A stretch of 47,860 nt of DNA. Origin: Seison nebaliae (lineage: Eukaryota). The DNA lies in the NCBI GenBank assembly GCA_023231475.1, contig JALJEE010001243.1, positions 1 to 47,860 of the forward strand. The letters run 5' to 3'. The position numbers and the translations under genes are program-made. Of the stretch, positions 1-46,892 are shown piece after piece. Within the stretch, counting starts at the first letter, position 1. Each line of letters begins with the position of its first letter. A model generated the notes under the pieces. The model was not told the origin of the DNA, made no database searches, and worked only from the letters and a program-made list of their open reading frames with translations.

Positions 1-1015
1 TGTAGTTCCCCCAAAACTAATGCCACCAACGTTACCTCCATTAACCCCACTAGATTTCACTGAATAACTTCCAAGATTAGTTTGAGGAGACATTGAATAT
101 GAGGTACTGCGAACTGTTGACATCGATCCCATACCTCCCCAAACTAATAGAATATCACCATTTATGTCTTTTAATGTGTTTTCGTTTAAAATCATAGGTT
201 TCATTTTACCCCATTTCATTGTATCCAACTGATTTTCATCCAAGGTCCAAGGTCCACCTGATAACTCCCATTTTTCAAAATCTGCGTTATTCTTATATGA
301 TTCGTCGTCTAACACTTTGAAGGACGAAAGTAAACCATCTGAACCCGTAGAACTAAAATGACCCTTTAACATTTTGATCAACTTAGATTGGCCTACTTGA
401 GGGCTCATCATTGCCCCTAATGAACTCCAAATCATTGCAGAAGGTATGGTAATTATTGTTACTGATCCAGTGGGTTTGACCTGACTACTGCCAAATTGAT
501 TTCCATTTAATTGATACATGTCCATACCGTCCCAATTGATTCCACCTTTCAATAATTTGATCAATTCTTGTTTTCCCCAATTTCCCCATTTTCCTGATTT
601 TAACATGACTCCCGAATTTCCATTCAATCCAATTCCATTCTTAGTTTGGAACGTAAAACTGCTTCCTGTTGCGGATCCTTTTCCACTCATACTGCCCATA
701 CTACCACCACTGAGACTATATGCACCAAAACTTCCACCTCCTCCAAAGCCGCCCATGTCCATACTAGAATCTGAATTATCCAAGGTCCAGGAACTGAATC
801 CTTTGGGCCATTCTCCGAACTTTGACTTCATATCATCAACACTACTAAAACCACCTCCTTGAGATGACCAAGACTGTGATTTAGTCATAAAACCTATAAT
901 GAAAATAGAAAATTTTTAATTTTGCAATGCCTATAACGTAATAACCATGGTTTTTCGAAACAAAGGTTGAAGTAAGAGTCCAACATAATAGAAGGAAATA
1001 AACTTTGAAACTCAT
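1..1015 (-). CDS. Secreted Gly/Ser/Trp/Met-rich protein of unknown family (3' end outside window)
   Basis: Exon 1 1015-946 encodes the hydrophobic leader MSFKVYFLLLCWTLTSTFVSKNHG. A 52-nt intron 945-894 (GTTATT...TAG, phase 1) follows. Exon 2 893-1 is open with no stop (FMTKSQSWSSQGGGFSS...GGNVGGISFGGTT). Missed by the ORF track because the stop lies outside the window. Confidence 0.8.
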
Positions 1016-1687
1016 GTTTGCAATAACATTAGCAAAAAATATCTGTATTTAAAGTGATTCACCTATAAACAAATTTAATTTTAATTAGAATATCGAACCG
1101 AGAAACAACAGTATATCTATTTCGTTTACTAATATATTTGTTGTACCAAGTGTATTTGTTAATGGTATTTTAATATAAATTTGTCTCCAACTTAACGTAC
1201 TGATTTTAGAAATGTATTTTCGAAAAATATATTGTTCGCTATTGTTCGCTTTATATGAAATATACACAAGGTCAACCTTTTTGAATTCGTTTCATGCTCA
1301 AAATAACGTTAGGATAGTTTAACAAACACAGATTCATGTGGAAGTATCTTGGTGGTACATATTAGAAAATTTATTAATTTAAGATTTTTCGCAATCACCG
1401 CGAAACAATAAATAAATTAATTAAGCACACCATGGATAAGTAAACGTAAACAATGTAAGTATTACGTAAAGGAATAAATGAGTTTTAGCAAGAGAGTTTT
1501 CAAATTTACTGCTATTCGATATTCAGAGTTCTCAAAGATATCGTTGCAAAATTCGGAGGAAACTATCGTAACTTAATGATTGATATAATACGAAGTTCCT
1601 TTTTTAAAACACCCACAACAATAAAATTGAAACTTCTTTGAATTCATGGAATGAATTCTTCCAACGAATGAATTTATTTTATCGTAA

Positions 1688-1844
1688 CCGGAATGTAGCC
1701 AAATTTTTTTAAAAAAAAACATTTGGAAGGTAGCCAAATCTTTGTTTTTCACTTGAAATGTAGCCAAATTTTTTTTCTTGACTTAGAACGTAGCCAAATC
1801 TCATATCTTCATTAGGAACTTAGCCAAATTTGGCTACATTCCGG
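1688..1844. mobile_element. 157-bp MITE-like element with 19-bp perfect TIRs and internal tandem motif array
   Basis: CCGGAATGTAGCCAAATTT (1688-1706) is the exact reverse complement of 1826-1844. The core TAGCCAAAT recurs at 1696, 1731, 1761, 1791 and 1821. No clear TSD. Confidence 0.7.
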
Positions 1845-1971
1845 GAATCTATTTTATTGGTAATTTTATATTCCAGTCTATATTCTAATCATTGTTGTTT
1901 ATTTTCTGAACCCTTACACGAAGATTTGCGGGTCAAATTTTAAAAAAGTCGATGGGAGTAGTCTGAAGAAA

Positions 1972-44076: not shown

Positions 44077-44314
44077 ATTAGATATAACGGAATAAAGAGA
44101 CAAATATATGGAAAAACCGAAAAATTAATTCCTCAAAAAATTTAATATAGATGATGAATAGGATATTTTGGATGAATGGAGTTATGTTTAAATGATTCAA
44201 ATTTGCAAGATAATATATGATTCGCCTAAAAATAATGAAAAACTAGAGAAGAATATTTAGATGATATTTTACTTTTTGAACGGTTGGCTGTCGCCATTGA
44301 AATTAATTATAAAA

Positions 44315-45352
44315 ATGAGTCGACTTCGCAGTAAGGAATTTGAGAAGATTTGTCAGACGAATGACATTCCAGGTGGGAGTAGTTCGAAACGAAATCATTT
44401 GAAACGTTTACAAGAATCGAATCATCGATTCTATTCATCGTTTATGAACGATGTGAGAGAAATGTACAAATTGATTGAAGAGATTCGAAAGAATTTAATA
44501 GTTTCACTAAGATTTGATGGATGGATGAACAACGATAGAGTGATTGATAAGAATGAAATTAATTCAACAGAATTATCTCAGAAATTATATAATAATTTAA
44601 AGTTGTTATTGAAGAAATATGATATGGTCGATGTAAAGAATGGTGGAAAGAAGAATTTGAATGAACTCTCTTCTTCCAATCAACTCCTTCAACATTGTCA
44701 ATTGATTTATGATGATTTATATGATTATGTTGATGATATTATTGATATTTCATTTAAATATGAGAATTATATGGAAACTGATCATAAATTGTTAAAGAAT
44801 CAATTTCGCTTCTCTAATCAATCCAAATCATTTGATGAACAATTTATTGATGAATTACAAAGGAAAATGAAGAAACCGGTGAAAATGAAAAATCTCAAAA
44901 ATCATTCATCGAAACTGGGTTATCGAATTGATAAGGATGAATTGAATGAGAGGACTGTTGAATATCATGAACCGAATGAACGAATTGAAAAGAAATTAAT
45001 TCAATTACAAACTAATCGAACTGATCAAACATTACGACAAATGCTAGAAGAAGGTGAACAAATTGATTTAACTGTGAGAAATATGAGAAAATTGCAACAA
45101 GTGATAACGGAACAAGTTGTGATGCAATCAGAAAAATTGGAATCAGCTCAAGATAATTTAGAGGATGCAAATAACGATATGAATGAAGGAAATGTTCTCA
45201 TTCGAAAGACGATGCAACAAAAAATTTCGAGAAGATTTTACATTCTCATTTATTTCATCATTTTATCAATCATCTTATTGATTCTCGATTCGCCCTCAAT
45301 CATTCTCCTTCCATTGAAATTATTGAAGAGATCTATTTTCTTCTATTTCTAA
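44315..45352 (+). CDS. STX18: Syntaxin-18-like ER Qa-SNARE, intronless, ~345 aa
   Basis: SNARE motif EGEQIDLTVRNMRKLQQVITEQVVMQ...MNEGNVLIRK and TM RFYILIYFIILSIILLILD. Start 44315 is preferred to 44261 on expected length. Confidence 0.8.
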   Translation: MSRLRSKEFEKICQTNDIPGGSSSKRNHLKRLQESNHRFYSSFMNDVREMYKLIEEIRKNLIVSLRFDGWMNNDRVIDKNEINSTELSQKLYNNLKLLLKKYDMVDVKNGGKKNLNELSSSNQLLQHCQLIYDDLYDYVDDIIDISFKYENYMETDHKLLKNQFRFSNQSKSFDEQFIDELQRKMKKPVKMKNLKNHSSKLGYRIDKDELNERTVEYHEPNERIEKKLIQLQTNRTDQTLRQMLEEGEQIDLTVRNMRKLQQVITEQVVMQSEKLESAQDNLEDANNDMNEGNVLIRKTMQQKISRRFYILIYFIILSIILLILDSPSIILLPLKLLKRSIFFYF

Positions 45353-45432
45353 TTATCTCATTCTCATTCATTCTTCAATCCAAAAAAAAAAACATGAAAC
45401 AATAGATAATTTAATTTTAATAAATTCTCTCA

Positions 45433-46892
45433 ATGAAAAATATTTCGATACATTTCTTTATTTCAGCATTCATTCAATTATTTCTCATCTTTTATTCAAT
45501 TTGGCATGATGGGAAATTCCGTGTGAAATATACTGACGTCGATTATTATGTATTTATGGATGCGGCTAAATATGTGTACGAAGTTATTTCATTTTACAAA
45601 ACTCAAAAACTTTTTGTCAAATTTGTCCTCTTTTCTAGCATAAGAGTCCTTATGAACGTGCTACTTATCGATATACTCCACTCATAGCACAAATGTTGGC
45701 GCCATTATATTGGTTTGAGAAGTATTCGAAAACTGTTCCATTGATTCTGGGTAAAATAATGTTCTGCATATTCAATCAATTGGCATGTTATCTCATTTAT
45801 TATCATGTTGGATCAACGATTATTTTGAAAGAATTTATGAAAAAAAGTTTCTAATTTCTCTTTTTATAAATTATGTAAATGTTTAAAAAATTTTTCGCAA
45901 TATTCTAGTTATCCTATTATCTTATCTATACAATCCTTTATTTATTGCAATTAGTACGAGAGGCAATGCTGATAGTTTTGTATTCTTCTTACTCATATTG
46001 ATCCTCTATCAAATGTATAAGAGTGAAGAAGAACGATCAATTAGAAATGCAATTATTCTTGGATTAATATTAGCCATAGCTATTCATATTCGAATCTTTC
46101 CAATTATATTCTGTTTCATCGGGTTGATGCAATTTAGGTCACGGAGGATAACATATCGTACTTCTTGGACATCGATTATTTTAAGTGTCAATCGAATACA
46201 ATTTGTATTTTCCATTACAATATTTTTGACATTATCTTCATTGACACTGTTCTATTATTTCTTGTTAGTATTATTCATTTTTTAAAATTCTATTTATTTA
46301 CTCTTAGATATGGGATGGAATTTTTGGAACATTCATATCTATATCATCTGACTAGGAAAGATATACGTCATAACTTTTCCACTTATTACATGTTCTTTTA
46401 CGCTGGTAATGAAATGAGGAAAGTGTTCCTTCATAAAGTCATAGATTTTATGCCATTACTCATTCAAGTCTATTTGTACATACACATTTCTCTCACGATG
46501 TATGCGAAAATTGCTCAAGCCTTACTTACATTGACGACAGTGTTTGTGGCATTCGGAAAAATTTATACTTCTCAATATTTCGTTTGGATTATCTCGTTTC
46601 TCCCAATATGTTTATCCACCGTTCATCATACATCATATTATCGATTGTTTAAAGCCTTACTGCTTTGGATACTAGCACAAGTTAATATTTCCTTTTTACA
46701 AACAGTCGAATAATAATCTAATTTTAGATCTTTTGGCTTTCCATGGCATATTTACTGGAATTTCAAGGATTATCCACACATTATGGACTAATGATTGCTT
46801 CTACTCTCCTATTATATGCAAATATAAATCTCTTGCAGAGAACATTAAAACTTAGCAGTTATCGAAGAATTCATTTAAAGAAGAACTGTTAA
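45433..46892 (+). CDS. PIGM: GPI mannosyltransferase I (PIG-M), ~416 aa
   Basis: KYTDVDY (DxD), SPYERATYRYTP, ISTRGNAD, YLYHLTRKDIRHNFS, YTSQYF, YLLEFQG and a KKxx C-terminus (KKNC). Introns 45583-45638, 45847-45908, 46264-46307 and 46681-46727. Confidence 0.95.

Follow-up and report, generated by a model that had tools for sequence, protein, structure and literature searches.

Predicted coding introns on a Seison nebaliae contig begin with GTT and point to a probable rewritten 5′ splice-site rule in an animal

Along one stretch of the Seison nebaliae genome, predicted coding introns begin with GTT, even at ancient positions, and not with the GTA or GTG usual in animals. Seison is a tiny relative of rotifers found living on marine crustaceans; its splicing machinery is likely to read intron starts by a rewritten rule, with a changed U1 RNA as the leading candidate cause. 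Major introns of animals are regarded as having GTR at +3 and G at +5 almost without exception. The window, meaning the whole stretch of DNA that was analysed, is one contig of 47,860 nt (JALJEE010001243.1, assembly GCA_023231475.1) with 29 predicted introns in 8 genes. All 29 listed donors are GTT as written, and the reading frames stay open in the 8 genes, on both strands.

Intron density is high for the sample (29 in 8 genes per 48 kb), and published transcript alignments contain many short gaps. None among the 19,906 rows listed in the transcript table (Additional file 2, PMC8351084) matches the exon lengths or coordinates of the contig. Assembly error was ruled out for the CTP synthase (CTPS) stretch, which is identical in the contigs of two DNA runs (0 differences; either run may be the assembly source). 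Reads of the two runs were compared over 801–5740, covering 8 of the 29 introns, and gave flat depth and no joint at any intron, as in DNA. An Rfam search of the window returned a single tRNA and no snRNA. Of 158 ORFs found, 102 others were searched against Pfam and gave one match, a FLYWCH fragment, so that no further conserved gene was available to enlarge the donor sample.

Placement of the predicted introns

Introns were graded in three tiers. Fifteen junctions are fixed exactly by homology (tier A: seven in CTPS, three in Rab14, one in DDX47, LMO introns 2 and 3, and PIG-M introns 1 and 4), and all are GTT. Ten introns (tier B: the secreted gene, introns 1, 2, 5, 6, and 7 of a TPR gene, protocadherin introns 1 and 3, and PIG-M introns 2 and 3) have no frame-keeping GTA or GTG donor within 30 nt. 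Four (tier C: TPR gene introns 3 and 4, protocadherin intron 2, and LMO intron 1) have alternatives. The original prediction had described 29 required GTT introns; the 29 GTT donors and open frames stand, and it is the word "required" that was overstated in light of these grades.

In CTPS, on the forward strand, the seven introns lie at 3634–3677 (ATG/GTTTTG, the slash marking the exon–intron boundary), 3953–4013 (GAA/GTTTAT), 4215–4257 (ATG/GTTATT), 4339–4397 (AAT/GTTGCC), 4698–4747 (GAA/GTTTCA), 5039–5121 (TTA/GTTATT), and 5219–5263 (TTC/GTTAGG). Rab14, also on the forward strand, has introns at 6566–6609 (c.106, AAT/GTTTCG), 6855–6900 (c.351, ACG/GTTCTA), and 7020–7075 (c.470, AAC/GTTCAA), and the DDX47 intron lies at 34676–34722 on the reverse strand (ACA/GTTTCA). 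With HMMs built from non-Seison proteins only, the GTT junction was ranked top in 11 of 11 cases (CTPS 7, Rab14 3, DDX47 1), and each of these 11 junctions of the NCBI models has a single GT-AG placement. The smallest margins were those of CTPS intron 4, at 4 bits over a GC donor and 11.6 bits over the best GTA; its GTA decoys at −9 and −15 scored 11.6 and 17.4 bits below GTT. A divergent CTPS copy could be aligned at two donors (introns 1 and 3), and at both the match ends exactly past GTT (+3).

The four PIG-M introns, all GTT on the forward strand, are at 45583–45638 and 46681–46727 (introns 1 and 4) and at 45847–45908 and 46264–46307 (introns 2 and 3). In LMO (forward strand), intron 2 (14322–14523, AAG/GTTCAA) is 202 nt long, and intron 3 (14665–14721, TAT/GTTAGT) was placed by eye against the LMO2 chain; a PDB search with exon 4 gave no match. 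LMO intron 1 (14143–14194) starts at a tandem donor, GTAGTT, with GTA at 14143 and GTT at 14146, and the LMO2 spacing of 17 residues from Cys to His favours GTA. Use of GTA at this intron would count against a strict GTT rule, as does the restriction of the sample to one contig.

The TPR gene, which we take to be TTC29-like, has seven GTT introns between 11119 and 12874 on the forward strand: 11119–11160, 11256–11311, 11536–11584, 11795–12096, 12209–12282, 12594–12633, and 12812–12874. A homolog search returned generic TPR proteins only and no full-length ortholog, so the placement of its seven introns is based on reading frame and on the NCBI model. For introns 3 and 4, which have an alternative GTG at −21 and GTA at −30, the NCBI model picks GTT. 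On the reverse strand, protocadherin has introns at 18359–18405 (GTTTAA), 18226–18273 (GTTTGA; a read-through frame is also possible), and 17346–17388 (GTTAAT). A secreted Gly/Ser/Met-rich gene, also on the reverse strand, has one intron of 52 nt at 894–945 (ATG/GTTATT to TAG), the sole role of which in the prediction is to bring in a signal-peptide-like exon.

Donor composition, intron age, and comparison with bdelloids

The original donor counts were reproduced: T at +3 in 29 of 29, G at +5 in 6, and G at −1 in 8. The claim that +4 to +6 are loose was also borne out, with +4 and +6 at background composition. All 29 introns have GT-AG ends, and 25 measure 40–63 nt, the rest being 74, 83, 202, and 302 nt. 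At the acceptor, T-rich tracts run into YAG (−3 is T in 20, C in 6, and A in 3; −5 is T in 22 of 29). YTRAY-like branch-point words occur in 12 of 29 introns, a count made without a shuffle control in introns rich in T and A (46% T, 35% A). A minor-spliceosome origin was ruled out: U12-type donors read RTATCCTT, and none of the 29 does.

Two further features, absent from the original prediction, lie on the exon side. Exon ends are A-rich, with A filling 48 of 87 places at −3 to −1 against 31.8 expected (p 3e-4), and the second exon base past the acceptor is T in 22 of 29 against 9 expected. For the latter, the bdelloid figure of 7/15 is not significantly different (p 0.09).

Canonical animal U2-type donors are given as AG/GTRAGT, with a U5 class AG//GU and a U6 class //GURAG, in the available portions of PMC1779574 and PMC11347140. 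Seison introns resemble these in their GT-AG ends, T-rich tract, YAG, ancestral positions, and purine-rich exon end; they differ in that GTR is found at 0 of 15 fixed donors, AG precedes the donor in only 2 of 29, and 16 of 29 have neither G−1 nor G+5.

It is improbable that the machinery is unchanged and that AT-biased mutation with relaxed selection put T at +3, or that the contig is an outlier. That account draws on the T content of the introns, on the greater use of GTT at tandem donors in AT-rich Caenorhabditis elegans and Arabidopsis, and on the sampling of a single contig. The probability of T after GT is 0.42 in the window and 0.56 inside introns; under these two models, the chance that all 15 fixed junctions are GTT is 2.3e-6 and 1.6e-4, and for the 25 junctions of tiers A and B it is 4e-10 and 4.6e-7. 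Even 28 of 29 GTT has a chance of 1.1e-6 at 0.56. Composition is thus insufficient to explain an invariant +3 (p ≤1.6e-4 for 15, ≤5e-7 for 25), as had been proposed, and +3 is invariant while +4 and +6 follow background. Unchanged machinery also has against it that 8 unrelated genes on both strands concur, that the divergent CTPS copy appears to retain GTT, and that AT-rich bdelloids (GC 31–34%) retain mostly GTA.

A second account, also unlikely though somewhat less so, holds that there are two donor classes, with canonical U1 reading a GTA/GTG minority and a variant copy of U1 reading a large GTT class. LMO intron 1, with its better fit to GTA, is consistent with this, as is the NCBI model that fuses TFIIE with the TPR gene, where 2 of 11 donors are GTA, both dispensable. 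Against it stand the homology-fixed donors, 15/15 GTT, and a perfect canonical donor word, GCG/GTAAGT, in Rab14 coding exon 1 (6463–6471, forward strand) that is left unused in the NCBI model.

The age of the introns was examined in Rab14. The position of intron 1 is common to nine other loci, all GTR; that of intron 2 to three (L070, L071, and L073), all GTR; and that of intron 3 to L073, where the donor is GTAAGT. One spliced match (L069, 22 nt) looked spurious and was left out of this count, and in the Rab14 tree, a quick version, Seison is on a long branch and its placement was not used. All three Rab14 introns are thus at positions that have GTR in another animal locus, which argues for rewritten old introns and not new insertions. 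A very improbable reading, in which the introns are copies of an introner transposon whose end happens to be GTT, was rejected. The introns are short and uniform, and syndermatans do gain and lose introns (bdelloid Rab14 introns are at other positions). The shared positions, however, refute an introner origin for Rab14, the only gene so compared, and no family similarity was seen: pairwise similarity equals that of shuffles (maximum 34 versus 32.5; mean 16.65 versus 16.49), terminal inverted repeats are absent, and junction repeats are 0–4 nt.

For comparison with relatives, 15 donors were taken from two loci (L067 and L077) assigned to bdelloids by tree and cluster names. Here GTA accounts for 11/15 and GTT for 4/15, all four being GTTYGT and two of them orthologous; the GTT share differs from that of Seison with Fisher p 2e-7. 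Bdelloid rotifers belong to the same phylum and have short introns (43–66 nt) and a visible GTT class, but in them GTT is a minority that keeps GT at +5,+6 (4/4 GTT donors, against 4/29 in Seison; p 0.002). Together with poor recognition by canonical U1 (AUC 0.57) and the lack of an inserted intron family, this comparison upholds the proposed lineage-level shift in donor recognition. That the GTT donor code is lineage-wide is highly probable, on the basis of one contig and indirect signs.

U1 pairing and possible mechanisms

Predicted pairing with canonical U1 averages −1.3 kcal/mol for Seison donors and −4.2 kcal/mol for bdelloid donors (p 7e-5), and canonical U1 barely separates Seison donors from 45 nearby decoy GTs, with the AUC given above. 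A U1 with A at position 6 reaches an AUC of 0.74, and one with A at 5 and 6 reaches 0.84, in what is a partly circular test. G at position 6 performs as well as A (AUC 0.75), which counts against A6, and Seison donors average −2.6 on the A6 U1, still short of the strength that bdelloid donors reach with canonical U1 (p 0.04).

A change in U1 is about evenly balanced as the cause of the GTT donors, and the specific form of it that is the leading explanation, a major spliceosome whose U1 snRNA bears A opposite +3, falls just short of that. The A6 form is favoured because specificity for one letter is strict, with GTC at 0 of 29 donors and GTA likely at no more than 1 even though 35% of the letters in the introns are A, and because Entamoeba offers a precedent, a +3U lineage with U1 ACAAAC. 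Most lineages with atypical donors retain canonical U1 (PMC10581693), which counts against a U1 change. Entamoeba, moreover, combines its changed U1 with a rigid hexamer, a pattern that Seison with its loose +4 to +6 does not follow, which is a further observation against U1.

In the available text of PMC1779574, the pseudouridine at the +3-facing U1 position pairs A or G. The canonical (pseudo)uridine would thus yield GTR, and an A in its place would pair U only, giving GTT and excluding GTA, GTG, and GTC. The U1 helix would then be short, and pairing of U6 ACA with +4 to +6 would be relaxed, as the scarcity of G+5 may reflect. The rest of the specificity might come from U5 loop 1 on the A-rich exon end and from intron definition over ~50 nt. 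A GTTYGT minority class, as in bdelloids, could have been the stepping stone. A rival GTT is absent 40–65 nt before the acceptor in 17 of 25 short introns; since the length rule with a bare GT already leaves 13 of the 25 unique, GTT adds little specificity. Exonic GTT has an observed/expected ratio of 0.93, near that of TTT (0.94), and GTA one of 0.76, near CTA (0.68), values confounded by general TpA avoidance; exonic GTT does not appear to be specially avoided, and hence selection against cryptic GTT is not apparent.

Unlikely, though far from negligible, is the alternative of a U1 that is canonical, weak, or lost, with U at +3 recognised at a later stage, in the active site. Here the loss of the G+5 pair would be offset either by a G·U wobble of U6 at +3, next to the A-U at +2, or by changes in the Prp8/U1C/LUC7/SNRNP27K pocket. 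Several points are in its favour: G+5, which U1 and U6 both read, is mostly lost; pairing is not brought back to normal strength by any one U1 variant; yeast +4 shifts follow METTL16 and SNRNP27K and not snRNA changes; and the T at exon +2 hints at an altered contact in a catalytic step. In the available portion of Roy and Bowser (bioRxiv 10.1101/2022.06.08.495308), moreover, GUU pairs U6 ACAGA at +2 to +6, and U1 is lost in Cyanidioschyzon. Yet with a G of U6 opposite +3, one would expect C to be tolerated and A to be retained, contrary to the donor counts.

Known systems and implications

In a literature search, Entamoeba was the only case of a +3U majority to turn up, and no account of Seison donors was found. 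As far as the available portion of that same preprint describes it, Entamoeba has GUUUGU(U) donors (88–90% GUUUGU) and a co-evolved U1 ACAAAC, and it shares with Seison U at +3 nearly throughout (25/25 in Seison tiers A and B), the major spliceosome, GT-AG ends, an AT-rich genome, and a host-associated life. Entamoeba differs in its rigid hexamer and few introns, whereas Seison is an intron-rich animal with GTTTGT in 1 of 29, loose +4 to +6, and G+5 mostly lost.

Non-canonical introns are known in Fritillaria and Oikopleura, where terminal dinucleotides are changed, largely in newly gained introns. These animals resemble Seison in having a major spliceosome with altered splice-site rules; in Seison, by contrast, GT-AG is kept and +3 is rewritten in old introns. 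Roca and Krainer reportedly described in 2009 a U1 register shifted by +1 at GUUAAGU sites (GTTRAG, G at +6), a class that is rare in humans. Its donors also begin with GTT, but the G it needs at +6 occurs in only 5 of 29 Seison donors, and this class was rejected.

Tentatively, and with the balance somewhat against it, Seison may be the earliest known case of an animal whose 5′ splice-site code has been rewritten wholesale. GUU would then be the sole intronic donor signal, the pairing rules of U1 and U6 would have been rebuilt (unless U1 was dropped), and ancient introns in their thousands would have gone from GTR to GTT, possibly across the entire host-associated Seisonidea–Acanthocephala branch. 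An intron-rich animal whose old introns exchanged R for U at +3 and lost G+5 would mean that donor code and spliceosome can evolve together even where no mass loss of introns came first, as it did in Entamoeba. Such an animal would give a direct answer as to whether U1, U6, U5, or a protein pocket sets +3 specificity, and the bdelloid GTTYGT class provides an intermediate for study. On the practical side, the Seison genome would be misread by alignment and gene-finding software built on vertebrate-type splice models.

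Donor assignment in the window

All eight genes were rebuilt with open frames, and the 29 donors are GTT as listed in the original prediction. Its description of every intron as required is too strong: homology fixes 15 junctions, 10 more have no GTA/GTG alternative within 30 nt, and 4 are tentative. To avoid circularity, all frame-keeping GT/GC-AG pairs within 45 nt were enumerated and scored with HMMs built from non-Seison proteins only (70 CTPS, 50 Rab14, and 50 DDX47). For these three genes the GTT junction ranked top in 11 of 11 cases, and the same 11 junctions are used by the NCBI models. 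Four further junctions were fixed by continuity with solved structures (LMO intron 2, upstream exon to chain position 77 and downstream exon from 79; LMO intron 3, by eye; PIG-M intron 1, chain position 50 then 51) or with Pfam (PIG-M intron 4, profile position 219 then 220). LMO intron 1 offers a tandem donor, GTAGTT, of which the residue spacing of LMO2 favours GTA, although the second LIM domain of Seison carries a 5-residue insertion in that loop.

SNEBB_004714, an NCBI protein of Seison nebaliae, matches the DDX47 exon at 100% identity, Rab14 is SNEBB_004709, and CTP synthase (CTPS) is SNEBB_004708. SNEBB_004710 (P0361; 8488-13337) joins a single-exon ORF (8488-10740), which we take to be TFIIE-alpha-like, to the TPR gene. 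This fused model is likely an annotation chimera, and the in-frame GTT-AG intron that it adds at 8789-8836 is probably false. Its donors comprise 9 GTT and 2 GTA, both of the latter dispensable: one yields an 11-codon mini-exon within intron 11795-12096, and the other removes a stop codon by splicing. Perfect GTAAGT words occur at 3453-3458, just upstream of the CTPS start codon, and at 6466-6471, within Rab14 exon 1.

CTPS showed 0 differences from contigs of two DNA runs (X1 and X3). Low-depth contigs (depth 2.6-4.3 versus 15-29) are ~84% identical to CTPS and align over 3468-3636 and 4011-4217; both aligned pieces stop at donor +3 though the contigs continue. From these alignment ends, a divergent CTPS copy would appear to keep GTT, with the intron diverging soon after (2/2 donors, among 16 pieces listed).

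Seison is epizoic and lies within Rotifera/Syndermata, with a genome of ~46 Mb according to the available text of PMC8351084; window GC is ~30%. Intronless genes encode linker histone H1 (36851-37582, minus strand), a syntaxin-like protein with a weak SNARE match (44315-45352, plus), and a 439-aa ORF with an Asn/Gln-rich tail (15556-16875, plus). Neither this ORF nor the secreted-looking Gly/Ser/Met/Trp-rich protein truncated at the contig end (1-1015, minus) gave a Pfam match. A tRNA with anticodon GCA (Cys) lies at 44005-44076 (minus). Multi-copy repeats at 10-20x the depth of the rest, a FLYWCH fragment, and a reverse-transcriptase fragment occupy 1690-1850, 2172-2324, 2657-2806, and 39096-39599. 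The first exon of the protocadherin (17086-23229, minus; ~2,000 aa) is one uninterrupted 4.8-kb block, and its repeats are separated by long insertions. In the 11 kb upstream of this gene (23240-34420), unusually long for so compact a genome and possibly regulatory, no ORF scanned had a Pfam match.

Base composition and the wider splice site

GT is followed by T at 42% of its sites in the window, a share that rises to 56% within introns. Composition alone was rejected as the cause of GTT, as originally argued, from the 15 fixed junctions (p <=1.6e-4); chance gives p <=4.6e-7 for 25 junctions and 1.1e-6 for 28/29. The accompanying view that +4 to +6 vary freely stands for +4 (p 0.65) and +6 (p 0.2), which match background, whereas +5 is marginal (G in 6/29, p 0.02 uncorrected). 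G-1 and G+5 are both absent in 16/29 donors.

Two further signals had been overlooked. Exon ends are A-rich (A 48/87, expected 31.8, p 3e-4), and exon position +2 after the acceptor is T in 22/29 (expected 9; 0/400,000 simulations) versus 7/15 in bdelloids (p 0.09). Such acceptor junctions read AG|AT, AG|GT, or AG|TT; they possibly represent an exaggerated proto-splice signal offsetting weak donors.

GMAP probably calls a gap below 100 nt an intron only where its internal splice model rates donor and acceptor both highly. The published GMAP alignments of Seison transcripts (Additional file 2 of PMC8351084; parts 1, 200, and 330 of 400) contain numerous 40-99 nt gaps, and short introns are therefore apparently spliced species-wide. 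By hand count, 84/94 distinct short gaps in these parts appear as deletions and 10/94 as introns, a split that, counted in Seison alone, is weakly compatible with non-canonical donors genome-wide; window genes were not found among the rows listed. That the pattern reflects drift, or the contig is an outlier, we consider quite improbable.

Bdelloid donors and intron age

A Rab14 metagenome scan gave 80 loci, mostly transcripts; 14 were spliced-aligned and 12 yielded introns. Two of these loci (L067 and L077) are assigned to bdelloids because they group with P0140 (98 SH-aLRT, quick tree), a protein whose cluster comprises Rotaria, Adineta, and Didymodactylos. Rab14, eIF2-gamma, and G3BP of these loci supplied 15 donors, the relatives sampled being bdelloids only. 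Consistent with the lineage difference originally anticipated, these are mostly GTA (11 GTA, 4 GTT; versus Seison, p 2e-7 for 29/29 and 2e-6 for 28/29). All four bdelloid GTT donors are GTTYGT, two of them orthologous. Coexistence of two donor classes is rather improbable as an account of the Seison pattern.

All three Seison Rab14 intron positions (c.106, c.351, and c.470) are occupied in one metagenome locus, L073, where the donors are GTGAGT, GTGAGT, and GTAAGT, respectively. Position c.106 is common to 9 loci and c.351 to 3, all with GTR donors. Similarity among Seison introns is no greater than among shuffles, and they contain no terminal repeats. Because Rab14 positions are shared, the introns are unlike each other, and terminal repeats are absent, an introner origin was rejected, at least for Rab14, and is hardly credible for GTT introns. 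In bdelloid Rab14 the first intron (L067 3094-3146; L077 106-160) sits at c.105 in phase 0, a single base ahead of c.106 of Seison and 9 other loci. The intron has apparently slid by 1 nt, both donors being GTT.

Candidate mechanisms of GTT recognition

In canonical U1 a pseudouridine faces +3, so that either A or G can pair there (PMC1779574, in part); A at that U1 position (A6) would admit U only, the strict pattern observed. Fixed-register modelling gave canonical U1 a pairing energy of -1.3 kcal/mol with Seison donors and -4.2 with bdelloid ones. The true donor was top among nearby GTs for 13/29 with canonical U1, 19/29 with A6, 20/29 with G6, and 26/29 with A5+A6, gains that are partly circular. 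A6 pairing reaches only -2.6 kcal/mol, so U1 pairing would be weak in any case and pairing of U6 ACA, which contacts +4 to +6 (PMC12086092, PMC10581693, in part), would be relaxed. The A-rich exon ends fit U5 loop 1, and short intron length narrows donor choice: of 25 short introns, 13 lack any competing GT at 40-65 nt upstream of the acceptor, and 17 lack a competing GTT there.

A U1 carrying A6 is our tentative favoured cause. Against it, exonic GTT is not specially avoided, and canonical U1 is retained in most lineages with odd donors, as far as the consulted sections of bioRxiv 10.1101/2022.06.08.495308 and PMC10581693 describe. Reading of the +3 U at the active site or by a protein is the less probable alternative.

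Searches of literature on Seison and on Seisonidea/Acanthocephala splicing, introns, and snRNA, with most subscription journals outside coverage, found no account of Seison donors; the accessible portions of PMC8351084 and PMC10125929 do not address donor sequence. C. elegans donors are 44% //GURAG and 32% AG//GU (PMC11347140, in part). In Entamoeba, 88-90% of introns carry GUUUGU and U1 is ACAAAC (bioRxiv 10.1101/2022.06.08.495308, in part). The Seison donor change would work like the Entamoeba transformation, but Seison is an animal and shows neither the hexamer nor the intron poverty. Judged from the sequence of one contig, the GTT pattern of the predicted introns is genuine: it exceeds chance, is specific to the lineage, and sits on ancient introns.
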